From Methanobacteriota archaeon (GTDB lineage: Archaea; Thermoplasmatota; Poseidoniia; Poseidoniales; Thalassarchaeaceae): a stretch of 48,985 nt of DNA. Location of the stretch: assembly GCA_002717835.1 (NCBI GenBank), contig PBBV01000008.1, positions 2,152 to 51,136 of the forward strand, given 5' to 3'. Both the position numbers and the translations under genes were made by a program. Shown here piece by piece: positions 1-36,342 of this stretch. The notes under the pieces were generated by a model that worked only from the letters and a program-made list of their open reading frames with translations, was not told where the DNA came from and ran no database searches. Each line of letters begins with the position of its first letter. Positions within the stretch are counted from its first letter, which is position 1.

Positions 1-3000
1 TTTGCCCCTCGACGGCAAGGTCTATTCTATCTCTCAGGATTGCTACTGAGCCTTCTACTATTTCTCCAACCTGATATCCTTCTGGACGTGCCCATTGCTG
101 GCTGAGTAGTATGTCCACACGGCTTTGAACTAGAATCTCCACGTCTACGAAAGAGCCGTTAATCACAGGGGCCGTCTCGATCTGACACCCTCCCGGAACT
201 GATCGAGTTGGCTCATATGCGATTCTAACTGTCCTGAAGCCCTCGAGCTGATCACCACTTGGATCTACGCCGCGCTGACTTGGATTGTCTTCTTTGTCGC
301 CGGAGAACCACTCTACTGAACCTGTACCGTCATTGGTACGGGCAGTGGCGAATGGTCTCGTATTTGTCTCGGGATCTAGATAGACGTTCAGGCATTTCCC
401 TCCAACAGGGTTACCATTCACCTGAGTTAGTCTGGCATCGAAGTGGAAAGACTCTTTCAGATACAAAATGGGGAATGTGCTGCCATTGGCGAATGTGTAC
501 GTATCAACGTCATTTCTGAAAGGTCCTATCTCAATCATCTGAAGTGTTGAATTGGAGTACACTGGGAACAACATCGTCTTGGTCGCGTTGAGGTATCTGT
601 AACGATCTGCATTCTCCCAAGAATTGTATCTGACTTGGACTTTCGCTTGGCCGGCTTGGACGCCCTCCAAAGAGCACATTATCTCAAAGAAGCCGTTTAT
701 GTCTGTAGTCCCTGGCAGACAAGTTCTGATTCCAAGTTGGCTGCCTAGCATCTCATAATCTACTTTGACGTTCCTAAAGCTCAAGTTACGTCCTAGTTCG
801 TCTACCAGTTGCCCTGTTACTATCATTGGTTTTTGTATCGATTCGCCTGTTAGAGGGTCAGCCTCTGAGGTGTAGACAACTTGCTCGTCGACGCTCAAAG
901 AGGTCTCACCGAGAAGATAGAATCCTTCTTCTTGGAACTGGAGGACCCTGCGATAGTGGTCGTTGTACAGGTCTTGTGTACATTCATCCCACGCACCGGC
1001 AATTTCAAGCGCGTTGGGCCCCAATGGTCCGCAGCCCTCATGGGGTAAATTCTCATTAAATCTGAGAATCACATTAACCGGCCCGAAACCATCGGGAAGG
1101 AAAGATTGAGCATCAGACGTGAGTATCTCAGGATCGAGGGTCATCTGATGGGTTATCGCGCCTGCGCTTGGACAAAGATTGTCAACTATTTTTCTGTGGA
1201 CGCGGTCTTCGAAGTCTAATCCTTCAAGTATGAGGGTCACAATGCCTCCGTTCTCGCCGCATCCATCTAGCGCCTGACCGGAATCCTTCTCAAATGCTGT
1301 ACGATTATCGTCAGTCACCTGAGCGGTGAAATACCAATCTTGCCCACTCATTAGGGGTCCTGAAACACTGGATTGCAGATCGATATACGTGCGAGAGACC
1401 ACCCAGAGGTCTGTTTGGCCCTCTGATGATTGATGCAGCATATCTCCGGAATAGGTGTATGAGAGGGTGAATGCCCCCAGAGGATGGTCCTGACCGATCG
1501 TAAGGTTCACTCTGAATATTCCATTCTTGTCCGTGGAAGTGAGGCCGTTTGATCCGTCTGCGTCCCATGAATAAGTGACTGGCACCTCCCTAAGCGGCTG
1601 TAAGGAGTTGTCGACGAGTCTGACTTCGACTGTCCGATTGACGCCCCTGTATAATCTAGCATCTTCTACAGGCAAGAACTGGCTCGTTCCGATGACTGTG
1701 ACATTCACATAAGCTCCGGTTGATGACAGTATTGAAGATTGATTTCCAGTGAAATAGAAGTTGGAGTTGGTGAAATCCGCTTTCACGCCATAGGTACCAG
1801 CAGCATATTGAGAATACCACGACCAATTATAGTCGAACTGCGCCTTGCCATCTACCATGTTGGGAACTCTTGCAAAGCCGGTTTCTTGGGCTCCTGCGAA
1901 GACGAGGTTCTGATCTAGGTCGACCTGAAGAGCAATGGCATCCTGAGCCCATGGTACAAATGTTCTATTGTACACCTCTCCTACGACTCTTAGAGACTCT
2001 CCTGTGAAGAGTTCAGGTATGATTTCACATCTGATGGGGCTGAATGGATCCGTTGGGTCAGCTGGTCCGCAAGGTGGAGCATTGAAGTCTCCTCCATTCT
2101 GCATTGCCACAGACCAGTGCGTGAGATTTGCCGAAAGGAATGGCCTGAGTTTGGCAGCTTCTCCATCAAGCCCGGAGCTAGTGCCATCCCAGAGTAATGG
2201 ATACGGCTTACCCAAACTGGCTTCTTCGTATGCTATTCCTGCGCTGTTCAAGGAGGGTGCGTGGAACAACGCCCTCCACGCCCCGAATGAAGATCCTGTG
2301 AATTGAGTTGCATCCCAAAAGTAAACCGGTCTTATCGAAGTAGTATACATGACGGCTTCAATGTACATTCTGTGCATTGAGCGAATGTAGAACGTTTCTG
2401 ACTCGCTTCCATTCAGATATGGGAATGGCCATTCAGCACCTAGATCTGGGCGTGAAAAGCCTATGAATTCGTAATCACCGACTGGAAGAGAGGTGTTGGT
2501 GTATGTGTATCTATCAACTACCTCATGTCCCTTGGCGTTGTCATCCCATACAATTTCCTCATAGCCGCCACTTGGTTGGCCTACGCCGTTGTCCATTGTC
2601 GAATTCCAACGAACCTGCTTCCAGAAGCCCTGTGCGCCCTGATCCTGGACGAATGTAAGGGATACCCACCCATTCGAATCAGCTCTGTATCCGAATCCAT
2701 ACCCATCGAACAAAGTGGGCACTGATCTGTTTCCGAATGGGCCTCCAGCTACAGTAAATGAAACTGGGGCGTGTTTGATTCGATTGTCGAAGATTCCTCT
2801 TTCCCAGTCTGCGTGATAGTGAACCTTGTAATCAACAAATAATGGCTGTTCATCGCTTCTGAAATAAGTCCACGAGACGTAATCAACAGTAGTATTTGCC
2901 CTTACCTCGAGCGGTGCGGGTGTGGAAGATGATCCGTCATGAGCAAACATCTCGATAACATCCGCTCGAAGATTATATCGCGTAGAGGGGCCTACCTCAA

Positions 3001-6000
3001 TGTCCTCGGGATAGAGATACTGGCCAACCGTGAAATTTCCTCCCTCATCTGTGAGTACTTCAACAGTCCTGAGCGTCTCTGTGGAGTTTCTCTGGTATTC
3101 GATGACTATTCTCACCGGCAGATCCGAACCGGGGACGAAAGCTCCTGTCTCGAGATCTAGCACATCCACCCTACCGGTGAATACTGCTGGAAACTGTGCG
3201 TCGAGCCAAACAGTCTGAATTGGATTTAACGTAATGCGGGTCGGTGGTTTGTCATCAGCGTCTAGGACGCAATCATTGTCGTTATCCCAGTCGCTGGCAG
3301 GGTACTCGGCCCCGCTGGAGTCCGTGCATGTAGCACCCTCTTCTAGATGGTCCCAATCAACATCGGGAATACCGTCTGTATCATCATCTTCATCGAGGCT
3401 GTCGGGCCCTGTTGATGCGTTCGCTGGATTGTGCAAACCTGCACCAGTGCCGTAGTCATCATGATCCCATGGATTGGTCGAATTCGTTCCGTATCTACTT
3501 GGCCAAAGCATAACTTCGTCTTCATCATTCATTCCATCTTCATCGTCATCGAGATCTATGTCATCACGGAGGCCATCGTTATCGTGGTCCCATGGGGCTA
3601 CAGGATGGGAAGATCCTCCTCCTGCTTGCTCTATCGTGTTGGATATCCCATCTCCATCCCAGTCAGTGTCTGCCCAATCAGGAATTCCGTCATTGTCGTG
3701 ATCCCAGGGGCTTTGTTCTTCGCCCCTGAAGCATATCAACTCTTGATCCGCATCCAATACACCGTTGTTATCATCATCTGGATCTTCGCCGTCGGGTACT
3801 CCATCGTTATCGTTGTCCACGTCATAGTATTGAGGGAATAGGAGGCCTTGACCGAGCCTACCTCTGTCCCAAACGGACTGGTACCAACCATCTCCATCAG
3901 GATCTGTATCTGTACCATCATCATCGTGATCATCGCAATTATATCCTGTGAAGAAGTTCCCCGGCGGCTCTGTGTTAGAATCGTCATCGAGATCGTCATT
4001 TACATCGATCTCAAAGAAATCCCATATGCCATTGTTATCGTCATCGACATCCCAGTGGTCGTAGACTCCATCGAAATCGTCATCTAAATCAGCAGTGTCA
4101 TTCGCCATACAAGACGGATTCAAAGTTCCAGTTACAGGGGCACCACAGTCGTCGTCTGGGTCCACGTTGTTATCTAGGAGGTCTGCTACTTCGTCTGGAA
4201 ACAGGTTTCCGTTGGGGTCTGCAACCCATTGGAAGAATCCGAAGTTGATGCCTACGTAGGCCGTCCAAAGATCTCTGTTATTGATCATCTTATCGAACCC
4301 AACGGCAGCAGAGGGGCCTGCATCTTGATTCCCAAGGAAGTCGAAGTGAAAGCAGTTCTGTTCGCAGGTGAAGTCGTTTATTCCAGCGGAATTCTCACCA
4401 CCATATGGGCCGTCAGTGTAGAGCGGATCTGGCCTTGATGAATAAGGCAGGGTAAATGGGACTCCGTTTACCGAGCTAGCGTCTGCCAGAGGGAATCCAT
4501 ATAGCCATGCGAGGGCGATTCCGCAGGCAGTTGGGCCCGCGGATAGCCCCAACAAGAATGCCATCGAAATATCGCATTCCCCGTCATCAAGAGACCCGCC
4601 ATATGCAGGGTCGTTGACATCATAACGGCCGTCTGATCCCTCATCACGGTCCCACCAATTGGGCACGCCATCTGCATCCATGTCAACATCGACGCCGTTG
4701 ACAAGTGAATCCCCGTCCATATCGATGTCGAAGTAGTTGTTGCCATTCCAAGGGCTCCATTTCATCATCACATGCCAATACATTTCCGGGACATTCCCAT
4801 TAGATACAATCGTAGGCGGGCCTAATGTGAAGTCGTCTTGGTAACCGTTGTACGGGAGGACGAAGCCATGCTCTTCGAAAAATGGACTGAAGTGCCAGAA
4901 CATATCCCAATGAAGAGTGCCTGTTCCGGTGTATAGGCCGCTGTCCGCGGATCCATCTATGGCGTCTCCGTCTTGTTGGGAGTACGAATTGTCGAACTGA
5001 TCGGTGTTGTCGTTGTCAACAATCCCACAATTTCCATCATCGGGGTCATATAAATCGGAAATTCCATCGTTGTCGTCGTCCCAGTCCTCATCATTGGATA
5101 GCCCATCGCCATCGATATCAGTGTCAATATAATTCAAACCGTCGTCCCTGTATCTTGATCCATTTAACAGATGCAGGTCATTATCGTCATCCAAATCGCA
5201 ATTCTCATCGATATCCAACCAATCTAAAACTCCGTCATTGTCGTCGTCTACATCTTCCCAGTTAGAGAAGCCGTCGCCGTCCCAATCATTGTTCCCAGTG
5301 TGTGATTTCCTTTCTGTAAGACAGCGTGGGTCTGGATTTATCGGGTTTGGATTCTGAAGCGTTTCGCAATTCCAGGAATCCAGTGTTGAAGTGGGTACCA
5401 TTGGATATGGATCATCTTGATTTGGGATTCCATCATTGTCTAAATCGTACGGGATATCGGCCAGATCGACTCCGGGATTACCGAGAAGGTTGTCTGCTGG
5501 GTCAGCAGCTCCAAGATCTGTGTCCTTCCAATCCCAGACGAGGTCATAATCTGCGTCTATGGCTCGATATGCGTCGTCATCAGCATCCCGATCATAATCA
5601 ATTTCGCAATCTACGCCTGGAACTTGACCGAACCAGTCATTGAATCCGTCTAGGTACTGGGACAAATCGCTTAGAACGTTTAGACAGTTGTCTGGTATGC
5701 CATCATTATCATCGTCAATGTCCCACATATCCAAGAGTCCGTCATTGTCATCATCTGTATCTGCAGAGTCTGGCGTTCCGTCATTGTCATTGTCTGGATC
5801 GATGAAATTAGGAAGTCCGTCGCCATCTAAGTCCCCGTCTACGATCTCATTAAACGAGGGATTGCGAGGATGCCAAAGGTTCTGTTCCTTAAATGCGAAG
5901 TCAAGCTTGTCTTTTCCGTAGGTGTCAAAGTCTAGATTGAATGCATCGGGGAAAGGTTCGCCAGTGGCAGCGAGGACGGTAATAATTCCATCACCTACTC

Positions 6001-7111
6001 CCCCTAGAACGGTGTCCGAGTATCTCCAAGTCCCTTCGGAATCGAATGTATGGCTGAATGATTGGCCTGTGGTCAATGTTCCGCTGTCGAAGGTTCCATC
6101 GGCTGAAACCGCGGAATGATTTTCTGTATCGTCATTTGTCCATGTGACCGTGTCCCCCACTTCGATCTCAAGGTCTGTATCTGAATATCCTGCAACTGTA
6201 ATAGAAATCTGATGTGTCTTGCTGGAAGCCCATGGGATCGCATCATCCCAAAAAGTAGCTGTTCCGGTGATATTGGACGTCTCGGAAGGATCCCAGGGGT
6301 GAGTGTCCCAAAGATCGATAACTCCATCGTTGTCATCATCTGAATCCCAATAGTCTTGCAGTCCGTCGCCATCGAAATCACATGGCCAAACGAATTGGTC
6401 GATGCGGGCATCGTTATCATCGTCCTCGTCATAGGAACCCTTACCGGAGCCATCGATATCTTCGTCAGTGATTCCATCATTGTCATGGTCCAGCGGGTTC
6501 TGATCGACTAGGTATCCAGACCCGAGTGCGAGACCTGTCCATGGATGCAAGATGCTTGGTTGTACGTACCGATCTGAGGTGACGTTCCACGGGTCTGTAC
6601 CTTGTGAGTAGTCGATCGGTCCCTCGAGAATCCCGTCGTTGTCATCGTCGAAATCAAATTCATCTTGAACTCCATCGTTATCATGGTCGTAAGGATCTGT
6701 TCCGTAGCACCCGTCGAATCGTTCGATTAAATCGGATATGCCGTCGTTGTCATCGTCGAGATCGTCCAAATCGTTGATGCCATCGTTGTCGTGATCTTCG
6801 GTCTCTGTCTCTTCGACCATGAATCGATAACCACCCTCAAGGAACGAAGTATCTGTTATTTGCCCGTAGAGTATGCCGGGATCAGACCAAGACATGTCTT
6901 GGAAGGCGGGATGGTCTGGGAGTAGCATGTGTTCGAGTGCTGGAAATGAAGAAGTGTCAACATCTGATGATTGGATTTGCTGTTGAGTCGGTGTATCCCC
7001 TGTTCCATTATCGAATGGTCCTGACTGGTCTCCGACCGCTATCATCGGCATCTGTACGCTAACCACCATCAAAACCACCAAAAGTAGGGATTTTGTGGTC
7101 CTGTTTCTCAT
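1..7111 (-). CDS. Giant secreted/surface protein (>2370 aa, 3' end beyond the window's left edge) with thrombospondin type 3-like DxDxDG Ca-binding repeats, a cupredoxin-like domain and C-terminal beta-rich Ig-like regions
   Basis: Absent from the ORF track because there is no stop inside the window. Manual translation from ATG 7111 (GGAGA upstream; alternative in-frame ATG at 7129) gives MRNRTTKSLLLVVLMVVSVQMPMIAVG (signal peptide), then many DHDNDGI/DDDNDGI/DLDGDGL repeats. The frame stays open to base 2 (...VAILRDRIDLAVEGQ). Many N-x-S/T sequons. Confidence 0.9.
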   Translation of the reverse strand, partial: MRNRTTKSLLLVVLMVVSVQMPMIAVGDQSGPFDNGTGDTPTQQQIQSSDVDTSSFPALEHMLLPDHPAFQDMSWSDPGILYGQITDTSFLEGGYRFMVEETETEDHDNDGINDLDDLDDDNDGISDLIERFDGCYGTDPYDHDNDGVQDEFDFDDDNDGILEGPIDYSQGTDPWNVTSDRYVQPSILHPWTGLALGSGYLVDQNPLDHDNDGITDEDIDGSGKGSYDEDDDNDARIDQFVWPCDFDGDGLQDYWDSDDDNDGVIDLWDTHPWDPSETSNITGTATFWDDAIPWASSKTHQISITVAGYSDTDLEIEVGDTVTWTNDDTENHSAVSADGTFDSGTLTTGQSFSHTFDSEGTWRYSDTVLGGVGDGIITVLAATGEPFPDAFNLDFDTYGKDKLDFAFKEQNLWHPRNPSFNEIVDGDLDGDGLPNFIDPDNDNDGTPDSADTDDDNDGLLDMWDIDDDNDGIPDNCLNVLSDLSQYLDGFNDWFGQVPGVDCEIDYDRDADDDAYRAIDADYDLVWDWKDTDLGAADPADNLLGNPGVDLADIPYDLDNDGIPNQDDPYPMVPTSTLDSWNCETLQNPNPINPDPRCLTERKSHTGNNDWDGDGFSNWEDVDDDNDGVLDWLDIDENCDLDDDNDLHLLNGSRYRDDGLNYIDTDIDGDGLSNDEDWDDDNDGISDLYDPDDGNCGIVDNDNTDQFDNSYSQQDGDAIDGSADSGLYTGTGTLHWDMFWHFSPFFEEHGFVLPYNGYQDDFTLGPPTIVSNGNVPEMYWHVMMKWSPWNGNNYFDIDMDGDSLVNGVDVDMDADGVPNWWDRDEGSDGRYDVNDPAYGGSLDDGECDISMAFLLGLSAGPTACGIALAWLYGFPLADASSVNGVPFTLPYSSRPDPLYTDGPYGGENSAGINDFTCEQNCFHFDFLGNQDAGPSAAVGFDKMINNRDLWTAYVGINFGFFQWVADPNGNLFPDEVADLLDNNVDPDDDCGAPVTGTLNPSCMANDTADLDDDFDGVYDHWDVDDDNNGIWDFFEIDVNDDLDDDSNTEPPGNFFTGYNCDDHDDDGTDTDPDGDGWYQSVWDRGRLGQGLLFPQYYDVDNDNDGVPDGEDPDDDNNGVLDADQELICFRGEEQSPWDHDNDGIPDWADTDWDGDGISNTIEQAGGGSSHPVAPWDHDNDGLRDDIDLDDDEDGMNDEDEVMLWPSRYGTNSTNPWDHDDYGTGAGLHNPANASTGPDSLDEDDDTDGIPDVDWDHLEEGATCTDSSGAEYPASDWDNDNDCVLDADDKPPTRITLNPIQTVWLDAQFPAVFTGRVDVLDLETGAFVPGSDLPVRIVIEYQRNSTETLRTVEVLTDEGGNFTVGQYLYPEDIEVGPSTRYNLRADVIEMFAHDGSSSTPAPLEVRANTTVDYVSWTYFRSDEQPLFVDYKVHYHADWERGIFDNRIKHAPVSFTVAGGPFGNRSVPTLFDGYGFGYRADSNGWVSLTFVQDQGAQGFWKQVRWNSTMDNGVGQPSGGYEEIVWDDNAKGHEVVDRYTYTNTSLPVGDYEFIGFSRPDLGAEWPFPYLNGSESETFYIRSMHRMYIEAVMYTTSIRPVYFWDATQFTGSSFGAWRALFHAPSLNSAGIAYEEASLGKPYPLLWDGTSSGLDGEAAKLRPFLSANLTHWSVAMQNGGDFNAPPCGPADPTDPFSPIRCEIIPELFTGESLRVVGEVYNRTFVPWAQDAIALQVDLDQNLVFAGAQETGFARVPNMVDGKAQFDYNWSWYSQYAAGTYGVKADFTNSNFYFTGNQSSILSSTGAYVNVTVIGTSQFLPVEDARLYRGVNRTVEVRLVDNSLQPLREVPVTYSWDADGSNGLTSTDKNGIFRVNLTIGQDHPLGAFTLSYTYSGDMLHQSSEGQTDLWVVSRTYIDLQSSVSGPLMSGQDWYFTAQVTDDNRTAFEKDSGQALDGCGENGGIVTLILEGLDFEDRVHRKIVDNLCPSAGAITHQMTLDPEILTSDAQSFLPDGFGPVNVILRFNENLPHEGCGPLGPNALEIAGAWDECTQDLYNDHYRRVLQFQEEGFYLLGETSLSVDEQVVYTSEADPLTGESIQKPMIVTGQLVDELGRNLSFRNVKVDYEMLGSQLGIRTCLPGTTDINGFFEIMCSLEGVQAGQAKVQVRYNSWENADRYRYLNATKTMLFPVYSNSTLQMIEIGPFRNDVDTYTFANGSTFPILYLKESFHFDARLTQVNGNPVGGKCLNVYLDPETNTRPFATARTNDGTGSVEWFSGDKEDNPSQRGVDPSGDQLEGFRTVRIAYEPTRSVPGGCQIETAPVINGSFVDVEILVQSRVDILLSQQWARPEGYQVGEIVEGSVAILRDRIDLAVEGQ

Positions 7112-7267
7112 TGTGAGATCTCCAATCATGCCAACACCGGGTATCGAGTTGACGTGGACACATATTTCAATCGTACCCGAATGGGGGCGAAGCGAGTATC
7201 ATGGATAGCATCAGAGTATCATCTCTGAATGAACGCGTTCATATCTTATCGATGTGGGCATCGTCTC

Positions 7268-8154: not shown

Positions 8155-8478
8155 ATGGGTTGGAAGTGGAGGTTCTGGCAAAAATCGAGTGGCAATATCG
8201 GTGATGGGCCCCACATCCTAGGCACCCGAATTTGGCTTCAGGAGTTACGAGAGCTCTGCGAGCGTTGCTTCGATAATCGAGAAGAGGGGCAGAGGCTTGT
8301 TCGAGAATTGCAAGTCGAATGGGGTGATGCTTGGAAGCGCATGGAGGTTGAGGAGTCATTGAAACAGGGGCTTGATCGTCGTGCATTGAGATTGATTAGA
8401 GCTAATGACTCAGAATGGTCGGATTGGCTAGACGATGAGCGTTTTTGGATGCCAGGATGGAAAGGTGAGGGATCATGA
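8155..8478 (+). CDS. Small Trp-rich helical hypothetical protein (107 aa)
   Basis: ATG 8155 preceded by GGGAGA. Stop overlaps the next start (ATGA). Fills the gap between rlmH and the next gene. Confidence 0.7.
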   Translation: MGWKWRFWQKSSGNIGDGPHILGTRIWLQELRELCERCFDNREEGQRLVRELQVEWGDAWKRMEVEESLKQGLDRRALRLIRANDSEWSDWLDDERFWMPGWKGEGS

Positions 8479-9203
8479 TATGGTGGATCTTTCTTTTCTT
8501 AGGAATAGGTGGATCGTGTTTTTGGCTTTCTTGGCACCAGCCTTTCCCTGAAATCTCTAGAAGATTCGCATACTTGGTACTCATGGCGGGCAGTGTTTTG
8601 TTAATTTCAGAACAGGCGCCAAGAGAAACCAGCGAAACTGTTCCGATGTATTTTGCACTCGGGCTCGGAGTTCTCGGGACGTTGAAAGGTTCCTGGGATA
8701 TGACCAGAACGATGCGCGATGTAATTGTTGCTCCCTTCGCGGGAGGAATGCTCTGCGTAGGCAGTGCTGCACTACTAGTTGGATGGTGGGATGAAGGGGG
8801 TACATACGAGCACATCAGTTCATTCATTCTTGTATCAGCATTGATCTTGATGGAAATATATCTCGTTTTCAAAGGATTAATCATTGGTGTGCCTGGTTTG
8901 AGCTGGTCTAAAGCCGGACTCAGACAGATACAACGTGGATTGCTGGATGGGCCATCAGGAGCCATATCATGTTTTGAGAGATCCTGGGACGCTGATGAGG
9001 AATGGCTTGGGGCGATGAGTCATGCGGCCTTAATCCGTATTTACAATCATCTCGACCAAGAAGAATTAGCGAACAACAGCGAGAGGTATCTTGAACAGTT
9101 TGGAGGTTGGGAGGTCGTTGATTCCGCATGGATAGAAGCGATAGACTCTGCATTGAATTCTATCTCAGAATCTGTGTGGTCTGAACCGATTGCTGATATG
9201 TAA
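8475..9203 (+). CDS. Hypothetical membrane protein (about 5 TM) with C-terminal helical, possibly TPR-like, soluble domain
   Basis: Several hydrophobic segments in the first 140 aa. ATGA coupling to the upstream gene. Confidence 0.75.
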   Translation: MIWWIFLFLGIGGSCFWLSWHQPFPEISRRFAYLVLMAGSVLLISEQAPRETSETVPMYFALGLGVLGTLKGSWDMTRTMRDVIVAPFAGGMLCVGSAALLVGWWDEGGTYEHISSFILVSALILMEIYLVFKGLIIGVPGLSWSKAGLRQIQRGLLDGPSGAISCFERSWDADEEWLGAMSHAALIRIYNHLDQEELANNSERYLEQFGGWEVVDSAWIEAIDSALNSISESVWSEPIADM

Positions 9204-10244: not shown

Positions 10245-10320
10245 GTGGACCGGTTGATAGAGGGTGGGAAGAACCCTTGGGAGGCGGAAGCGATACATCA
10301 TGGTGGCTTCAGGAATAGCC

Positions 10321-11292
10321 ATGGCGGATGTCGACGGTTTGGAAATAACAAGGATTCTGACGGACAGTGACCTTGATGGGGTCCTTTCAGGGGCGATTTT
10401 ACTCAGAAGGTGGCCTGAAGCGGAGGTTGTGTTCGGTCATCCCGGCGCCTTGAAAAATGGCCTCTATGACGATTTTATCAACGGCGAAACTGCCATTTGT
10501 GATCTTCCCTATCATTCTAATTGTGGTTTATCCATAGACCATCATCTTTCCAACAAGCCAGATTCTGAAGGCGGGGTGCGTGTCTGGGAATCGGCACCCT
10601 CGGCAGCCAGAGTCGCAGCAAACCTCCTAGGCCACATTATCGACCTGGAGGATCTCTCAGAGGCTTTGAAATGGACCGACCGACTAGATGGAGGAAGGGT
10701 AACGAGAGAGGAATATCTCTCAGAAGAGCCGATGGTATGGATTGGACGATCCATTGGTGTCGGAGAGGAAGTGGCTAGGACAGCCATGCATCTCTTTTCT
10801 TCCGGCCTCACGCCTTACGAGATATCGGAAACGAATGTCATAAAAGATGCTATTGCTCAAAGAAAAAGGGAGAATGAAATATTGAAAATAGAAATACAAG
10901 AACGGTTGGAAATTGTGGATCGTTTGGCAATTGTTCGTATGCATGGTTTAGGAATGCGGTCGAATGGGTATGCTGTGACAGCTTTTGCGGGGGATGCTTG
11001 CGATGCCTGTTTGATAACGCATGGAGACCTGGGGGTTTCCTTCGGGGAAGAAGATGGCTATCCCGTTTCTGCTTCATTCTATACGAATTCGTTTCTCCAC
11101 AAAGATGGAGGGATATTCAACCTAACCACTCTTGCATGTCGATTTGATCCTGATGGTGGAGGGCACAAAGACGCATGCGGATGCCGCATAAAGGCGCTGG
11201 AAGGGTCATCTGTAGTCGATAGAGATGTTACAGTGGAAGACATTGAGTCTAATATCGAAAAATGGATTGATCTTTGGTCCAAACGAATTTGA
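10321..11292 (+). CDS. DHH-family phosphoesterase (nanoRNase/pAp phosphatase/exopolyphosphatase-like)
   Basis: DSDLDG, CDLP, IDHH and C-terminal GGGH motifs. Confidence 0.85.
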   Translation: MADVDGLEITRILTDSDLDGVLSGAILLRRWPEAEVVFGHPGALKNGLYDDFINGETAICDLPYHSNCGLSIDHHLSNKPDSEGGVRVWESAPSAARVAANLLGHIIDLEDLSEALKWTDRLDGGRVTREEYLSEEPMVWIGRSIGVGEEVARTAMHLFSSGLTPYEISETNVIKDAIAQRKRENEILKIEIQERLEIVDRLAIVRMHGLGMRSNGYAVTAFAGDACDACLITHGDLGVSFGEEDGYPVSASFYTNSFLHKDGGIFNLTTLACRFDPDGGGHKDACGCRIKALEGSSVVDRDVTVEDIESNIEKWIDLWSKRI

Positions 11293-11335: not shown

Positions 11336-14300
11336 GTGTCGGAGCACCACACCATGGAGAATCAACTTCTCGAATGTCTCGAAGCAATGTCCGCTGCAGG
11401 GGATGATGAACGTACACGCTTGAGCCGTGTCGCCCGGAATATCGGATATGAAGAGCTCACGAAACCTTGGAAGGGGCTAGCAAAAATTGCCGCCTCCAAA
11501 ATGGCGCCGAAAGGAGTGGAAGATACAGGGGGATCGAATAGATCTGTTCGACGTAGTGGAAGAAGAACCGTGCGCGATAGAAGGGCGCGCAATCCGGTCC
11601 AGGATGTAATCGACAACATGGAAGAAGAGAATGCTGGCTATCGTCTGTGTCGGATTCTCCTAATTGCAAATAACGACTCAGACGTCTCTAAATCCGAAGC
11701 TGAGTCAATCAGAAATGAGTGTGAGAAGGGTCTTCACCCCGTGTGGGAGCGGCTCGCCCGTGAAGCGCCCATATTTGCCGAATTGAGTAGGTTTCCCGTC
11801 AAACAGCAGGAACGAAATACAGGTGATATCAATTTCTGGTCCGAATCAGCGAGATTTGATCCCCTTAATCATATGGAAGTTGGTTCTTGGTTGAATATTG
11901 AGCCTCCATTCTCCCTGTCGAGCGGCCAAAGAAGAGCGTTGAATCTACTAAGAAAGGAATACTCATCGAAGGTCGTCGTAAAGAGGGTCAAAGGGTACCT
12001 CAGCAATATTGAGGGAGGGAACCAATTGGAAGATTTTCTGTACAGCATAATCGGATCTTCGATAGGTGAAAATGTCGTAGAACGGCTTGAAAACGCTGTT
12101 AAAAATGATGGGATCAAAGAAGTCGCAGAGATGCACCTTGTTCTCAACAAAATGAGGTATGGAAATGGATCGAACGTAGCTTCGAACTGGATAGGAAAAG
12201 AAGATGCTGATCCCCTTGTTTCTTCCATAGTTCTCGAGGCTTGGAAACACATTGACTTGGATGAGACTGATTTGGATATCAAGAGTCTTCTATCTGGAGG
12301 TAGCCTGCTAGATGTCCACGGAGAGCTATGGCCAAATGACCTTTCATGCAAAATTGTGAGTCTGCTGATTGAAGCTGAAAGATACGAGGAGGCTGCCAAA
12401 ATATTGATTCAGAAGACAATCGATGCCAAGGAATGCCTCATTCTTGGAGCAAGTATTCCTCTGGAAGACTCTGCCCTTCAATCTGTCATACAAGATTCGG
12501 TCAAACGTTTGAGTTCCGAGGTGTTGAAGGAAATACTTGAGGATAAATCACTGACTGTTGGCGTGAAAATATTAGTTGCACGGGCGCTCATAGAGAGAGA
12601 AGACGTTTCTTACGGTGATAGCAAACTTGCAGACGTCCTAACATTGGGATGTGAAATTGAAATGCTTGCTAAGATACTCGTAGGTAGTGGAGAACTAGGG
12701 TCTCCCTTGAGGGGTTTGCTGGTTTGGCATCTACTTCCTGCTCATCTTGGTGTGAACCATTCTGACGAAATCCTGTCGCTTCGCAGAACATCTCTAACAT
12801 CCCTAAAAATAATTGAAGATGAATGCATAAGCGATGTGTCCATTGCATTGCTGTCTGTGATGAATGGGTTCTCAAAAGATTTAGCTGCCCTTCATGAGTT
12901 GCTCGGAAGCAAAGGTGTGATAGAGTTGAATCAAACCAGGAGAGCTCTGCTTTCGGAAGGGTCTGGAATCGTCAAAGAAAGCGTTCTCGAGCAACTTTCT
13001 AGATCTTCGGAGGCGGCTAATATGAATGAGATCGAAAGAGGTCTGTTCAGATCGTTGATAATGTCCTTGAGGCTGAATCGTGCTCGTGTTGACCTGCACA
13101 TGCAGACTGATGAAAAACGCGAGTCGGCGATATCTTCTCTTTCTTCAATTATGCAAACAAGACCTCCTTCCATGGAGATTCTAATATCGATATCAGAAAT
13201 TGTTGAAGAACACAGCCTTCCAATTCAAGAATTGGATGATTGGTATCGAAAATACGCTCCAGACACAATTTCTGCTCAAATAGCTAGGGCTGGGATTTGG
13301 TTAGGCAAAGGAGACCATCGGAACGCGGGTAGGGCTTTCAGGGAAGCTGCAAATCGCTCCAGTGGTTTCGAAGCTCGAACTGCATTGAATCGTAAGGCAT
13401 TGATTCAGCTCGCGCACGCCAAGGCTTGGAAAGATGCTGTCAACCTGATTGAAAGAAACGAAGAGTTACTAGCTGCCATAACAAAAAAGTTCCAACTGTT
13501 TCTCAGGGTGTGCAATGAATATGAAAATGGAAAGAAAGATTCGGCAACCGGTCTCATAGTGAATTACATCAAAAATTCTACACGTGACATGTCTGATGAA
13601 ATTTCCAATTTAGAGGGGTACTCCTCTGAGTTGGGGCTTCCTAGCGAGCCGTTTGAAGGTAGATTGAAAGCGGCAGTGAAGCGTCTAGAACGTTCTGAGC
13701 GAAGGAGGGGGATTGGTCGGGAAGATGATTGGAAAGAGGCTCTTAATGATGCAAAGACAGTAATCGATGTCGACGATATTGCAACTCAGCAGGCGGAATT
13801 GAAGCCTCTTGCGGGGCTAAGAGTATTCCAATCCGCGATTAGATCCGGATTCTTCGATGATAAAGATGTCAAGAGACTTCGCGGAGTGTTGAGGATTAAA
13901 TTTACAGAGTTAGAGAGGTCAATACCGATAAGAGATCGAAAGATATTCGAGATATCCGGACTGAAACCATTGGTTATAGTAGACACAAATATACTCATAC
14001 AGGCATTCAAAGACGAGCTTCTCAGTAGAGTTTCAACCGATGGATTTGGACAGCTTGTTTGGTCGATGGAACGGGCCTTCCAATGGGAATTGCGGCGAAG
14101 GGGAAATAGTGGTAACATAATGCTACACGTCCCATCCGCCGTAAAGGGAGAATTCGCCAACAGGACCCGGGACGTGAAGTCTGCTAGGAGTTTGTTCGAC
14201 GGGGAATATCAAGATCAGGTCTTGTGGTCCAAAATAGAAGAAGGTGAGTTACAGGATATTCGGAGGAACGTTATCGAACTATTCGACACGGTTTCTCTTT

Positions 14301-14659
14301 CGTTTAAGGGGAATTCGGATTTAGAAATCGGATTGAGTGATTTCCTAATCAAGCACGAGGGGATATTTGAGCGAATTGATGAGAGAAAGCGCATTCTAAG
14401 AGATGACGAGCCTGCGAGATCTGTTATTGGAGGGCGGGCAATATACCCTGAAACAGGGGATCTGAAGATAATGCTCGATGCAGCCAGTCTCGCATCCTAC
14501 ACGAGCGCTACGTCATCTAACCTGAAGAAAATCGGTTCGATACATGTAGCGACTCGTGATTCAGACTTTAGGATGATCAGAAGGTCGTTAGAAGAGACTT
14601 ACGGTTTCAGTGTGGTGAGTGATGCTGGAGAAGTCTCAAAATTAGTGCCGTCTCAATAG
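11336..14659 (+). CDS. Large alpha-helical/TPR-like protein with C-terminal PIN domain
   Basis: 1107-aa ORF. PIN acidic set IVDTN..VKGEF..TGDL..ATRDSDF from about 13970. TPR-like helices at about 13270-13530. Start GTG 11336 or ATG 11354. Confidence 0.8.
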   Translation: MSEHHTMENQLLECLEAMSAAGDDERTRLSRVARNIGYEELTKPWKGLAKIAASKMAPKGVEDTGGSNRSVRRSGRRTVRDRRARNPVQDVIDNMEEENAGYRLCRILLIANNDSDVSKSEAESIRNECEKGLHPVWERLAREAPIFAELSRFPVKQQERNTGDINFWSESARFDPLNHMEVGSWLNIEPPFSLSSGQRRALNLLRKEYSSKVVVKRVKGYLSNIEGGNQLEDFLYSIIGSSIGENVVERLENAVKNDGIKEVAEMHLVLNKMRYGNGSNVASNWIGKEDADPLVSSIVLEAWKHIDLDETDLDIKSLLSGGSLLDVHGELWPNDLSCKIVSLLIEAERYEEAAKILIQKTIDAKECLILGASIPLEDSALQSVIQDSVKRLSSEVLKEILEDKSLTVGVKILVARALIEREDVSYGDSKLADVLTLGCEIEMLAKILVGSGELGSPLRGLLVWHLLPAHLGVNHSDEILSLRRTSLTSLKIIEDECISDVSIALLSVMNGFSKDLAALHELLGSKGVIELNQTRRALLSEGSGIVKESVLEQLSRSSEAANMNEIERGLFRSLIMSLRLNRARVDLHMQTDEKRESAISSLSSIMQTRPPSMEILISISEIVEEHSLPIQELDDWYRKYAPDTISAQIARAGIWLGKGDHRNAGRAFREAANRSSGFEARTALNRKALIQLAHAKAWKDAVNLIERNEELLAAITKKFQLFLRVCNEYENGKKDSATGLIVNYIKNSTRDMSDEISNLEGYSSELGLPSEPFEGRLKAAVKRLERSERRRGIGREDDWKEALNDAKTVIDVDDIATQQAELKPLAGLRVFQSAIRSGFFDDKDVKRLRGVLRIKFTELERSIPIRDRKIFEISGLKPLVIVDTNILIQAFKDELLSRVSTDGFGQLVWSMERAFQWELRRRGNSGNIMLHVPSAVKGEFANRTRDVKSARSLFDGEYQDQVLWSKIEEGELQDIRRNVIELFDTVSLSFKGNSDLEIGLSDFLIKHEGIFERIDERKRILRDDEPARSVIGGRAIYPETGDLKIMLDAASLASYTSATSSNLKKIGSIHVATRDSDFRMIRRSLEETYGFSVVSDAGEVSKLVPSQ

Positions 14660-15400: not shown

Positions 15401-15437
15401 CCTAAGTGTTAAAGATGAAGTGCCCGACAGAAGGGCC

Positions 15438-16241
15438 ATGGAGCTTAAACAACGTATTGACAAAAGAAAGACTGCGATCTTTGGCGGTTCTATGGCATTG
15501 GCTCTGTTAGCCTTGCCATCCGTGGCCGCTGAGACTCAGATACTTGCAGAAAATGACTGGGTGGGAATCAGCTTCTGGATAGCAACAGCAATGATGCTAG
15601 CCTCGACTGTATTCTTCCTAGTAGAAAGGCAAAATGTGCCTGACAAGTGGAAGACATCGATGACAGTGGCCGCATTGGTCACTGGTGTTGCATGGTACCA
15701 CTACACATACATGCGCGAAGTCGCAGTTATGGATGGCGGTGGATCACCACTTGTCTACAGATACATCGACTGGCTGATCACCGTGCCACTGCAGGTAGTA
15801 GAGTTCTACCTGATCATGGCAGCTATCGGAGCCGCGACATTTGCAATGTTCAGGAACCTAATGGTTGCATCACTCGTGATGCTAGTAGCAGGGTTCTTCG
15901 GAGAGTCTGGAGCTATGGACTCAGTAGTCGATCTAGGTGCAACAGTATGGTGGATCATTGGAATGGCAGGATGGGGTTACATCCTCTATGCCCTCTGGCA
16001 AGGAGACGTCAAGGAAGCATCTGCTTCTGGTAGCGACGGTGTCCAGTTCGCATTCACATCAATGCGATGGATCGTTACAGTCGGATGGGCAATTTACCCA
16101 ATCGGCTACATGATGGGTAACGACATGATCAGCGGCTTCAATGCCGATGACATGAACATCATCTACAACATCGCCGACTTGGTCAACAAGACCGCGTTCG
16201 GTATGATGGTCTGGTACGCAGCAACAATGGACGCCGAATAA
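15438..16241 (+). CDS. Proteorhodopsin (DTE proton pump, Gln at tuning position 105)
   Basis: Signal peptide, WYHYTYMR (His75), RYIDWLITVPLQVVEF (R94/D97/T101/Q105/E108), WAIYPIGY, NIADLVNK (retinal-binding Lys). Confidence 0.96.
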   Translation: MELKQRIDKRKTAIFGGSMALALLALPSVAAETQILAENDWVGISFWIATAMMLASTVFFLVERQNVPDKWKTSMTVAALVTGVAWYHYTYMREVAVMDGGGSPLVYRYIDWLITVPLQVVEFYLIMAAIGAATFAMFRNLMVASLVMLVAGFFGESGAMDSVVDLGATVWWIIGMAGWGYILYALWQGDVKEASASGSDGVQFAFTSMRWIVTVGWAIYPIGYMMGNDMISGFNADDMNIIYNIADLVNKTAFGMMVWYAATMDAE

Positions 16242-21825: not shown

Positions 21826-23091
21826 TCATACGCCTTCTCTGTTCATAATCTCTTTCCGTAGCAAACTTGCTTCGCTATCCGATGTTTCGCCAATTCGCCT
21901 TAGTGTAGCTTCAAAAGCCTCCATAGATATCTTTCGCTGCTCAGAAATTAGTCCCATGAGGCGTGTTTTGACGAGATCGCCGCCACTAGTCCATGCATGG
22001 CTCAATAGACCCTGTTCATCTCCTGGGTCACGATCCAGATATGTTCTGAAGCCAGATTCGATCAATCTTCTAATCGTGCGGTCATTTCCAATGGAAATGA
22101 GATAGGCTGCACGAGCAGGATATTCTTCAGGCCTCTGCGCGCATAGGGAAGCGAGAGTATTGGAAAGTATGGTGATCAAAGAAGTGTCATCAGTGACTAC
22201 AAGCTTGTCATGTATCTCTAACGCTAGATATGGCATTCTTCCAGATAAGGAATCAAGGCGATCAGCGAGTAAATGGATTATAGAGCGATTTCCTGATTCA
22301 GAGATGGTCATCAGTGCTAGTCTTGCAGATTCGGGATCATGCGTTGAAATCTGTATCAAGGCGTCCAAGCATCCAGAGCAATTGGATTCTGGATACCGGA
22401 TTATGGCTTCCATTGCCCTCCTAGCTATTTGAAGTCTATATGCGGCCGCGGGATACATTGCCAGAGCGGGAAGCCATGAATTGACAGCTGCCATAGATTG
22501 TGGGTTGTCCATGGATTCCAGAAGAGAATTCACCGCGAGTACCCCTCGCGGATGTGGTATCCTTTCACCGTGATTTGGTATATCCATGCTTCCAAAGACC
22601 ATCGCGAGTATCGAATTAGGCTTCTCAGTCGCTGCGAATGACCCTTGTATAGTCCGGCCGACGAATGAGGTATAACCGAGATACCAGCGATCTGTATCTG
22701 GGTGGATTTCATCCAATGCCGAATTAAGCCAGTCGATGGCCGTCATTATCGATATCTGATCTGCAATCTCATGAGCATTCTTGTGGAGCCATTCTTCCAG
22801 CCTCTCTTCATGATCGAATAAGCCTGGAATAGGACGATACGTCATCTCTATAACATTCTCAAGTCGAATGTCGAAACCCTTTCGATTGGCTGCGTGTAAT
22901 CCTGCTGCCTGTTGAGTCAGTTTGGAGGGGTTTGTCGGCCTAAGGGCAGGGAAATCTGGTAATTCATGTATGGGATCGTGTATGGTAACAGATGACCATG
23001 CGGCCTCAATAGCTTCATGGATCTGATTTCCGACTATCTCAAAGATGAGTGGTCGTGAATCTCTGCGGTGCATCTTAGCACCAGAATTCAT
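21826..23091 (-). CDS. Hypothetical helical (HEAT/ARM-like) protein, 421 aa
   Basis: Long ORF with an ATGA overlap with the tfb stop. Amphipathic helical repeats in the C-terminal half. Confidence 0.75.
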
Positions 23092-28432: not shown

Positions 28433-29553
28433 TGGTGGTTGTTGTGCAAGATAGAACTCGAAGCAAGGAAGAGACAGTAAATGCGCTTCATGCGGTTGCA
28501 GCGGAAATGCATGATAGAATGATGAGGGGGGAGCCACCAAGAATGACTCTGCCAGTTAGATCAAAGAAAAATATAGCCTTCGACGAGAAGTTGAGTGTGT
28601 ACAAATATGGCAGTAAGAAGACGATTAGAGATGCAACCAGTCTAGGTTCTGCACATCAACTTCTGAGGGCACTGCATGTCACAGAATTCATGGAAGACAT
28701 GATTGAAAGTAAAAAATCATCAACACTAAGGGAGATGTACTACATCTCTGAGGGTTGGGGATATGGAAAATTTAGCTCTCAAAACGAAAGTAACAACCTT
28801 GCTGAAGACTTGGAGATTGTGACAGGATGTCTTAGGGAGGATTTCAAACTAAGGCCGGAAGAGGATGGCGCTAGAATAATCGGAAATCTTACGTTCCAAG
28901 AGAAAAATCGACGTGGAGAGTGGATGAGAATAAACTGCAGAGATGATGTCGGCGATTCGGGTTATGGAGTTCCGTACAACGTGGAATCTGAAAAATTACA
29001 ATTGATAGAACACGATATTGATTTCATGATGGCAATCGAGACGGGGGGGATGTTTGATCGGCTTGTAGAAAATGGATTTGATGAGTTGGCAAGATGTGGT
29101 TTGATTCACTTGAAAGGGCAACCAGCTCGTTCCACTAGACGTGTGATGAAGAGGATTAATGAAGAGTGGGGAATACCCATTGTTGTTTTTACTGATGCTG
29201 ATCCTTGGTCTTTCAGAATATTTGCTTCTATTGCATATGGTGCGATTAAAACAGCTCATATTTCGGAATATTTAGCAACCCCGAGTGCAATATATCTTGG
29301 TATAGAATCTGGGGATATAGAAGCATATGATCTTCCATCTGATGAGTTGACGCCCAGAGATATAGAGGCATTGAAAGCGGAGAAGAGCGACCCTAGATTT
29401 CAAAGTCAGGAGTGGATTGATCAAATTGATTTGATGCTTGATCTTGGAAAGAAAGCTGAACAGCAATCTCTCGCCAAGTATGGTCTTGATTTTGTCACTG
29501 ACACATATCTTCCAGAGAAGTTACAGCAGAAACTAGGACTTGTCATCGGCTAA
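28432..29553 (+). CDS. top6A: DNA topoisomerase VI subunit A
   Basis: STLREMYY (catalytic Tyr), AIETGG, KGQP, FTDADP Toprim motifs, KAEQQ. TGATG overlap with top6B. Confidence 0.97.
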
Positions 29554-29584
29554 ACTCCAAATCAGAGCTTGTTGTGATTGGTGC

Positions 29585-30343
29585 ATGGCGCGTCTGAGCT
29601 ATCCCCTCATTGCCCTCGTGGCTAGTCTTGTTTGTGTAGTCACATTCGCTATATCTTACTCAAATTTTGATGGTTATGGCGATCTTGATCCTGAGCAAAA
29701 TAGCCTTAGTATAGTAGAATCAGGAGAATCATTTTCCATAGTCCTGAATGAATATGATCAGATTTGGGTTTATTCTGAAAATAGTGAATCTTCCAATGCC
29801 AGCGTTACAATAAGAATCAATGGAACGGTTGTGAATGGCACTTCGCCAAAATGGTATGATACCTTTCTAACCAGTGAGGATGGGAAGAGAGTGTATGTGC
29901 CTTTAACTAAACTTGGACCGGGTCCAGAAGGCGATTATGTGTTTGAGAATGATGGTTCATCCTTGTTGTATCTCGTAGATATGGTAGGCATAGGGGAAAA
30001 TCTGTGGAAGGAGTCCTCTGTGCAAATCATGGCCGCCTCATGTTGCCTTTTTCCACTCATGGCAACATTGGGTATAGTTGGTCTATTTAGGTCTTCGAAA
30101 TCTACCAAGAAAGAGCCTAAAATACTGATATTCGATTCTAATGTAGGTATTCCAACGACTGAAGAAGTTTTCAGATCCGTGAATGACATATCAAAGGAAG
30201 AGGTGATTGTAAATTCTACCCCAGATCCGTGGAAGGAAGCGGTTTCTGAGGCTGAGGACATAGTCGAAAAAGTGCGTGATTCTGATGCAGGTTCTCGATT
30301 AGAAGAGGCTGAGGGTGATTGGCAAACCTGGGACGAAGGTTAG
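29585..30343 (+). CDS. Hypothetical membrane protein (N-terminal TM, extracellular beta-rich domain, second TM, acidic tail)
   Basis: Hydrophobic YPLIALVASLVCVVTFAISY and IMAASCCLFPLMATLGIVGLF segments. Confidence 0.7.
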   Translation: MARLSYPLIALVASLVCVVTFAISYSNFDGYGDLDPEQNSLSIVESGESFSIVLNEYDQIWVYSENSESSNASVTIRINGTVVNGTSPKWYDTFLTSEDGKRVYVPLTKLGPGPEGDYVFENDGSSLLYLVDMVGIGENLWKESSVQIMAASCCLFPLMATLGIVGLFRSSKSTKKEPKILIFDSNVGIPTTEEVFRSVNDISKEEVIVNSTPDPWKEAVSEAEDIVEKVRDSDAGSRLEEAEGDWQTWDEG

Positions 30344-36273: not shown

Positions 36274-36342
36274 GGATACCACTCAGTATGCTGAATGCAA
36301 CTCTAACCATACTTAATGTCGACCCACTCGGGTCAGATTTGA

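Follow-up and report, generated by a model that had tools for sequence, protein, structure and literature searches.

The 48,985-nucleotide stretch analysed here (contig PBBV01000008.1 of assembly GCA_002717835.1, positions 2,152 to 51,136 of the forward strand; hereafter the window) carries a gene for a protein of ~1100 aa in which a long helical solenoid precedes a C-terminal PIN-like domain. This solenoid-PIN protein, which is specific to and widespread in the Marine Group II archaea (Poseidoniales), is probably an active endoribonuclease with a housekeeping role, directed to its targets by the solenoid. Its distribution and genomic context argue that it is neither the toxin of a toxin-antitoxin system nor a defence effector. 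The VapC-type fold and the layout of the active site are known; what appears to be new is a PIN nuclease set in a lineage-specific, solenoid-fused housekeeping architecture. Residue numbers refer throughout to translation from the GTG codon at position 11336 (1107 aa), and the gene and its two parts are located as follows.

11354..14659, forward strand: likely coding sequence (1101 aa plus stop), supported by homologue starts, an identical database protein of 1101 aa and a ratio of nonsynonymous to synonymous substitution rates (dN/dS) of 0.08-0.10; the alternative start at GTG 11336 gives 1107 aa.
11336..13945, forward strand: irregular TPR-like all-alpha solenoid predicted for residues 1-870, from the full-length AlphaFold2 (AF2) model and scaffold matches in a Foldseek search of PDB.
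13946..14656, forward strand: PIN-like (VapC-type) nuclease domain predicted for residues 871-1107, from the AF2 domain model, Foldseek and a sub-threshold match to PF01850.

The open reading frame that an initial annotation of this DNA had proposed, 11336..14659 on the forward strand, is real and encodes 1107 aa when counted from GTG 11336. The equivalent of Met7 (MENQLL...) is nevertheless the first residue in all close homologues, and the database protein that is 100% identical to the window's copy has 1101 aa; the true start is therefore likely to be ATG 11354, which lies 62 nt past the stop of the upstream gene. For the whole protein, dN/dS was 0.080 against the orthologous locus L001 and 0.097 against L003, so that the gene lies far beyond a chance open reading frame. 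Both parts are constrained, with values of 0.086 and 0.105, respectively, for the solenoid and of 0.059 and 0.071 for the PIN part. The gene is real and under purifying selection over its entire length.

The motifs from which a PIN nuclease had first been proposed, DTN (883-885), GEF (938-940), GDL (1041-1043) and RDSDF (1074-1078), are all present in the C-terminal part, as are the Arg-rich patch (69-85) and the TPR-like hairpin (645-674) quoted from the solenoid. When placed on the secondary structure of the predicted domain, the putative active-site elements occupy four positions.

13982..13990, forward strand: D883-T884-N885, with the first acidic residue, directly after beta1 (877-882); present in 191 of 191 C-termini.
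14150..14152, forward strand: E939, matching in position the Glu that is catalytic in VapC-type PINs, in the helix following beta2; 190 of 191.
14450..14461, forward strand: E1039-x-x-D1042 (YPExGD), where beta3 ends and the following helix begins.
14552..14569, forward strand: T1073-R-D1075-S-D1077-F1078, directly after beta4 (1066-1072).

Residues were counted in a MAFFT alignment of the 191 unique C-termini of the family, which spans 36 clusters at 60% identity, separated by long branches. D883, T884, N885 and F1078 are found in every one of them, and E939 in all but one sequence, which has Gln instead. D1042, D1075 and D1077 each occur in 190, the short sequence P0070 having a gap there, and E1039 occurs in 177, with Gln in 13. 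The expectation that the acidic residues would be conserved in homologues was thus borne out, the principal positions being kept in 190-191 of the 191 C-termini. In Matelska et al. (2017, PMC5499597), the VapC-like group of PIN domains is defined by acidic residues after strands S1, S3 and S4 and by a Glu in the post-S2 helix, the latter standing in place of the FEN-type Asp. The acidic positions of the solenoid-PIN family, with strands placed from the models, agree with this definition.

The same conservation bears on whether the PIN domain is catalytic at all. The protein might instead be a scaffold that organises a complex, its PIN serving as a protein- or RNA-binding module in the manner of SMG5, and most of the protein is a solenoid resembling Ski3, Ctr9 and TTC7B. 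That such deeply diverged members keep the full acidic set (190-191 of 191) would, however, be unexpected for an inactive PIN, and we regard such a non-catalytic role as very unlikely.

The structure of the C-terminal part was predicted by AF2 for 250 aa using a 27-row alignment (A2). The resulting model, with a predicted local distance difference test score (pLDDT) of 85 and a predicted template modelling score (pTM) of 0.85, has a beta-alpha-beta core whose five strands alternate with helices in the three-layer alpha/beta/alpha arrangement of a PIN domain, though with weak statistics in structural comparisons. In the full-length model (see below), beta1 (877-882) is followed by two helices, beta2 (929-931) and the helix that carries E939 (934-943). 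Five inserted helices (947-952, 961-966, 969-983, 994-1006 and 1008-1021) then precede beta3 (1028-1039, of which segment 1034-1039 ends at E1039), helix 1040-1054 and beta4 (1066-1072), after which the domain closes with a pair of short helices, beta5 (1091-1094) and a terminal helix. K1018 is invariant in alignment A1, and R1028, at the start of beta3 and right after the insert, is present in 190 of 191 C-termini.

14168..14416, forward strand: predicted helical insert of ~85 residues (~945-1027) inside the PIN core, from the model helices, with conserved basic residues K1018 and R1019.

When the domain model was compared with PDB using Foldseek, 22 of the 40 rows listed were PIN proteins and four more were EXO1. 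The PIN rows listed include the minimal protein-only RNase P known as HARP (7e8k, 8ssg, 7og5, 8kda, 8kd9, 8ssf, 7f3e and 7e8o), VapC (3zvk, 5ed0, 5ecw, 5ecd, 5x3t, 4chg, 6a7v and 6nkl) and SMG6/EST1A (2hwx, 2hww and 2dok). The best target-normalised template modelling (TM) score, 0.68 with a probability of 0.90, was obtained for VapC 5ed0. Among the viral models of BFVD, the top two rows were likewise PIN proteins, with E-values of 0.023 and 0.052. The C-terminal PIN fold put forward in the initial annotation therefore stands insofar as the best structural matches are PIN proteins, at weak statistics. At the sequence level, PF01850 scored the window's domain at 13.3 bits (cut-off 23.6), and among A2 members scanned singly it was sub-threshold in 14 of 27 (best E 0.0024) and NYN in 4 of 27. 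Leads from ESM Atlas for the C-terminus were PIN_4 and PIN_halo, with scores <0.9; the relative P0008 (78% identical) is named 'PIN domain-containing protein' in UniRef, and relatives carry the JGI name 'LabA/DUF88 family'. These several lines, each non-significant alone, are weak but concordant in predicting that residues 871-1107 fold as a PIN-like domain.

Among known PIN proteins, those of the VapC type (PF01850; the VapC-like group of PMC5499597) offer the closest parallel, sharing the beta-alpha-beta core, the acidic positions and a T-x-D-x-D-F end motif, in addition to the best target-normalised match. The solenoid-PIN protein is nonetheless about eight times larger, with its PIN placed C-terminal to an 870-aa solenoid and interrupted by the 85-residue helical insert, and its gene is single-copy and order-wide, whereas VapC genes are patchy and multicopy. 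A VapBC toxin is small and single-domain and has an adjacent, co-oriented antitoxin gene; the protein studied here has 1101-1107 aa, and its gene is flanked by a DHH gene upstream and a convergent methyltransferase gene downstream.

HARP, which belongs to the PIN_5 cluster, gave the lowest Foldseek E-values for the domain (7e8k, 8ssg, 7og5 and 8kda), and, like the solenoid-PIN protein, has extra basic helices attached to its PIN and a pair of acidic residues ahead of the final Asp. These likenesses raise the question of whether the protein is a protein-only enzyme for tRNA 5'-end processing, an RNase P analogue convergent with PRORP or HARP that would supplement or replace RNA-based RNase P in Poseidoniales. 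In its favour, the two entries with the lowest E-values, 7e8k and 8ssg, are both HARP, and the basic helical insert (K1018, R1019) loosely recalls the HARP spike-helix (SH) domain, a basic domain described in PMC8266387 as critical for HARP RNase P activity. The acidic pattern D...E-x-x-D...D also resembles D7/D138/D142/D161 of Aq880, as given in that paper, and a solenoid joined to a PIN-like nuclease is the layout of PRORP. The HARP matches are, however, non-significant (E ~0.1, TM 0.34-0.49) and no better than those to VapC, and the HARP chains listed have 157-199 residues, HARP being a stand-alone PIN protein that works as a homo-oligomer (a dodecamer) and removes the 5' leaders of pre-tRNA. 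No PPR model matched even at E<=10, no CxxC zinc motif is present, and the NYN matches mentioned above (4 of 27 members) stay below threshold, all of which sets the protein apart from PRORP, an enzyme with PPR repeats, a zinc-binding central domain and a NYN nuclease. HARP-positive archaea, moreover, retain RNA-based RNase P and can do without HARP, according to PMC8266387; nothing relevant on RNase P in Poseidoniales or Marine Group II was found in the literature searched. The 49-kb window contains no RNase P RNA and only two tRNA genes. On balance, an RNase P analogue seems quite unlikely.

The structural matches could also be read as those of a structure-specific DNA nuclease of the FEN/EXO1 kind acting in replication or repair, given the four EXO1 chains among the PDB rows listed, the XRN and flap-endonuclease entries in BFVD and an RNase HI gene upstream in one class of loci. 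The EXO1, XRN and flap-endonuclease matches have probabilities <=0.2 and TM <=0.3, neither a helical arch nor an H3TH element is predicted, and the Glu in the post-beta2 helix is a signature of the VapC type and not of the FEN type, making this the most improbable of the alternatives weighed here.

The remainder of the protein, residues 1 to ~870, is all-alpha in the full-length AF2 model (48-row alignment A3; pLDDT 83.5, pTM 0.66) and comprises ~50 helices, in agreement with the ~880 aa of helical sequence first described. The composition given for this region was right only in part: Leu (12.1%) and Glu (9.8%) lead over residues 1-870, and Ala (7.7%) ranks behind Ser (9.7%) and Arg (8.0%). 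Two segments are disordered in the model, residues 60-84, which form the Arg-rich loop, and residues 789-797. A Foldseek search of PDB with the full-length model returned 17 matches at E<=0.001, every one of them a helical-repeat scaffold (Ctr9, IFT-A subunits, Ski3, spliceosome chains including chain I, TTC7B, clathrin and chains of the small-subunit (SSU) processome), with E-values from 4e-5 to 1e-3. TM scores are only 0.1-0.2, and the likeness to these scaffolds is therefore a generic solenoid similarity. Together, the model and these matches support the TPR-like character ascribed to the N-terminal region. Sub-threshold Pfam matches of the whole protein were HrpB1_HrpK (E 0.0084) and PAH (E 0.74), NCBIfam gave one sub-threshold TPR model (PrsT TPR, E 0.058), and the ESM Atlas leads for the N-terminus were TPR families, all with scores <0.9. 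A search of PDB sequences with the whole protein as a single sequence found nothing significant. Three features stand out within the solenoid.

11513..11587, forward strand: Arg-rich loop predicted to be disordered (pLDDT <50), residues 60-84, including RRSGRR.
11711..11791, forward strand: most conserved solenoid block, residues 126-152 (R126, G132-x-H134-P135-x-W137, A148), with invariant columns in A1.
13202..13525, forward strand: TPR-like helical hairpins, residues 623-730, suggested by the sub-threshold HrpB1_HrpK and PrsT TPR matches and by model helices 645-657 and 661-674.

In the Arg-rich loop, R72, R73 and R76 are >=90% conserved in A1, R72 and R73 also in A3, and a motif of the RR..R type occurs within residues 41-130 in 169 of 183 full-length members. 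Conservation among the first 750 residues peaks at block 121-150, where the exact pattern G.HP.W is retained by 139 of the 183 members; on this pattern of conservation, the block R126...G132-x-H-P-x-W137...A148 is a candidate interface.

Large helical-repeat scaffolds of the TPR/HAT kind (Ski3, Ctr9, Syf1/Clf1-type proteins, TTC7B, IFT-A) are thus the best full-length structural matches, but they lack a nuclease domain, and no Pfam model for the tandem 34-residue helix-turn-helix repeats of TPR proteins reaches its cut-off in the solenoid-PIN protein. In SMG6, SMG5 and PRORP, a long helical-repeat region is followed by a C-terminal PIN-like nuclease. The solenoid-PIN protein has the same layout, which we take as an architectural analogy only: the SMG6 matches 2hwx, 2hww and 2dok have root-mean-square deviations >14 A, no sequence relationship with SMG5/6 or PRORP is detectable, and modules of the PPR, 14-3-3-like or zinc kind were not found.

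The range of the family was assessed by several searches. The whole protein returned 86 matches, all of 1030-1148 aa and covering 91-100% of the query, and 84 were obtained with the most distant clade (P0110) as the starting point, including proteins labelled 'Candidatus Poseidoniaceae' and 'Candidatus Poseidoniales'. When the PIN part (871-1107) was run with HMMER against 1.84 billion representatives, 59 proteins were found, of which 25 have the full length of 1091-1169 aa and are matched at their C-terminus, 33 are shorter pieces and one is a TPR-CHAT protein (P0140). The last was rejected as a spurious relative, only its repeats having matched. A Pfam scan of 20 of the 59 found the PIN model in none. 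A profile search for short relatives yielded 69 matches, all of them fragments or short forms of the solenoid-PIN family, and reached no outside PIN family; across the whole-protein, PIN-part and short-relative searches, no PIN-only or solenoid-only relative was detected outside the family. Six short forms of the PIN part (P0234, P0261, P0280, P0281, P0283 and P0285; 129-388 aa) lie on contigs of 155 kb to 2 Mb and may represent either genes that are split or frameshifted or genuine stand-alone proteins. In the literature searched, the family was not found to be described, although the PIN-cluster member lists of PMC5499597 might include it.

Relatives are encoded by 193 stretches of species-representative genomes, the best 80 of which collapse to 72 loci. 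By accession prefix, the 72 loci belong to 72 different assemblies, with one locus each. Their labels are Poseidoniales, Thalassarchaeaceae or unresolved metagenome-assembled genomes (MAGs) of Euryarchaeota, Methanobacteriota or Thermoplasmatota, with one exception. This locus, L053, lies on contig PANV01000003.1 of a 'Candidatus Neomarinimicrobiota bacterium' MAG, where the archaeal gene is accompanied by the same downstream methyltransferase as in archaeal loci; in all likelihood this is a Poseidoniales contig that was binned wrongly. These labels support the placement of the organism in Marine Group II that the initial annotation had assumed.

The gene order around the family was compared in 57 of the 72 loci, namely those with a complete 5' end and >1.5 kb of sequence upstream; of the 15 left out, 8 had short flanks and 7 a best match truncated at the 5' end. 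The most constant neighbour is the gene that lies directly upstream in the window.

10264..11292, forward strand: DHH-type phosphoesterase (PggH/NrnA-like), 342 aa, identified by a PDB sequence match to PggH (7d62_A).

For its 342-aa product, the match to the DHH/DHHA1 pGpG phosphodiesterase PggH (7d62_A) has an E-value of 6e-6, and Pfam gave nothing at E<=0.001. The DHH gene is found <=800 bp upstream in 43 of the 57 loci, separated by <150 bp in 7 of these 43, as it is in the window, and by 150-800 bp in the other 36. A functional link between a putative oligoribonuclease and the putative endonuclease is possible. The remaining 14 loci have NTPase, GcvH and RNase HI genes upstream, and nitronate monooxygenase, DUF4442 thioesterase-like and acyl-CoA dehydrogenase genes downstream, as checked on one locus (L048). 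In L033 (7417..8094, reverse strand), the one locus examined among those with a gap of 150-800 bp, and in L048 (7423..7980, reverse strand), a small opposite-strand open reading frame of 185-225 aa with a weak DUF4079 membrane-protein match sits right upstream of the PIN gene; it is absent from the window, where the DHH gene abuts.

Downstream, the PIN gene faces a convergent methyltransferase gene, and no antitoxin-sized gene adjoins it in the window, as had been noted from the sequence at first. Elsewhere, the window encodes an RlmH-type methyltransferase, cobalamin adenosyltransferase, a NUDIX protein, proteorhodopsin, isocitrate dehydrogenase, class II ribonucleotide reductase, TFB, aconitase, Topo VI, RFC and PurL/PurQ, and is core chromosome. 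The flanks examined showed no genes of mobile elements. PADLOC gave no match for the solenoid-PIN protein; its calls of mad2 (the neighbouring methyltransferase) and PDC-S07 (the NUDIX gene) were rejected as generic domain matches. The window's copy lacks a Walker A motif, and Walker-A-like strings in 61 of 183 members were rejected as a P-loop, since they lie in a clade-specific, non-conserved loop.

The examination of phyletic pattern and synteny that the initial annotation had proposed thus places the gene once in each of 72 assemblies, syntenic within clades and among housekeeping neighbours. One locus per assembly, constant architecture, conserved synteny and housekeeping neighbours favour a housekeeping role. 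The initial annotation had left two options, an RNA-surveillance or processing nuclease and a ligand-activated defence RNase; distribution and context favour the former and disfavour the latter.

Several observations nevertheless weigh against an active housekeeping nuclease. In the structural searches with the domain model, none of the PDB matches reached E<=0.001 (best E 0.095), nor did any match in BFVD (best E 0.023). No Pfam PIN model reached its gathering score in the members of A2, no NCBIfam model reached its cut-off, and no Pfam model, repeat models included, reached its cut-off with the whole protein. The A2 and A3 profiles had 0 matches among PDB sequences. The convergence of the carboxylates in space is itself predicted from secondary-structure positions only. 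Furthermore, the solenoid-PIN protein diverges faster than every neighbour: across 58 distant loci, the median identity to the window's copy is 34%, compared with 48-82% for flanking genes. Core RNA-processing enzymes do not usually diverge this fast; such divergence is also seen in conflict genes.

This divergence is also what a defence or stress effector might show, in which the solenoid would sense a viral or stress ligand and unleash the PIN RNase to shut the cell down, and fusions of TPR-like sensor domains to nucleases are common in prokaryotic immunity. A single locus in each of the 72 assemblies, kept in synteny among housekeeping neighbours, speaks against such a system, as do the constant length and architecture, the low dN/dS throughout and the lack of mobile-element genes in the flanks examined. 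With no PADLOC match and no conserved P-loop, the protein also differs from STAND/Avs systems, which have a central P-loop NTPase between the effector and a TPR sensor: no Walker A motif was found in the window's protein, and everything before the PIN is predicted to be all-alpha. We therefore consider a defence role unlikely and retain the housekeeping endoribonuclease as the preferred interpretation.

Under the housekeeping interpretation, D883, E939, D1042 and D1075, aided by D1077 and E1039, would bind Mg2+ or Mn2+, and the metal-loaded domain would, by analogy with other VapC-type PINs, cleave single-stranded RNA endonucleolytically. Selection of the substrate would fall to three elements, the solenoid, the Arg-rich loop and the insert of basic helices (K1018 and R1019; R1028 comes just after it), either through direct binding of structured RNA or through docking onto a partner complex. 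Judging from distribution and context, the enzyme would be a vertically inherited component of housekeeping RNA processing, decay or surveillance.

Other parts of the window yielded further observations. The position of the proteorhodopsin gene next to the locus (15420..16241, forward strand) is conserved in comparisons with L003, L005, L006, L008 and L009, but its occupant is 33-35% identical in some close relatives and 88-96% identical in others, which suggests rhodopsin replacement at a fixed site. A giant open reading frame (2..7129, reverse strand; at least 2376 aa) runs off the left edge of the window and probably encodes a huge surface or adhesin-like protein, its sole Pfam signal being a weak Big_1 match (E 1e-4). 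The 1714-aa product of 31138..36282 (reverse strand) has a C-terminal CARDB domain and no further Pfam match, and four sizeable open reading frames have no Pfam match at the thresholds used: 21826..23091 (reverse strand, 421 aa), 29540..30343 (forward strand, 267 aa), 40399..41826 (reverse strand, 475 aa) and 8475..9203 (forward strand, 242 aa).

Among planktonic archaea, Marine Group II is one of the most abundant groups; its members are uncultured, and to our knowledge their RNA metabolism is known only by genome inference. The solenoid-PIN family has been missed by curated profile libraries, and a dedicated model would annotate every member. In a far-reaching version of the housekeeping reading, which we hold to be rather unlikely, the protein would be an independently evolved Marine Group II core counterpart of the eukaryotic helical-repeat-plus-PIN RNA enzymes, acting in essential RNA maturation, such as rRNA cleavage or the processing of tRNA 5' ends by protein alone, or in ribosome-linked mRNA surveillance; it would then hold a role that in archaea is usually given to other machinery. 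More generally, a large protein that is found across the order, is strongly constrained and keeps its PIN active site intact is a candidate for a lineage-specific step of RNA processing or decay, and would show in a prokaryote the solenoid-plus-PIN design otherwise known from RNA surveillance in eukaryotes and from protein-only RNase P.

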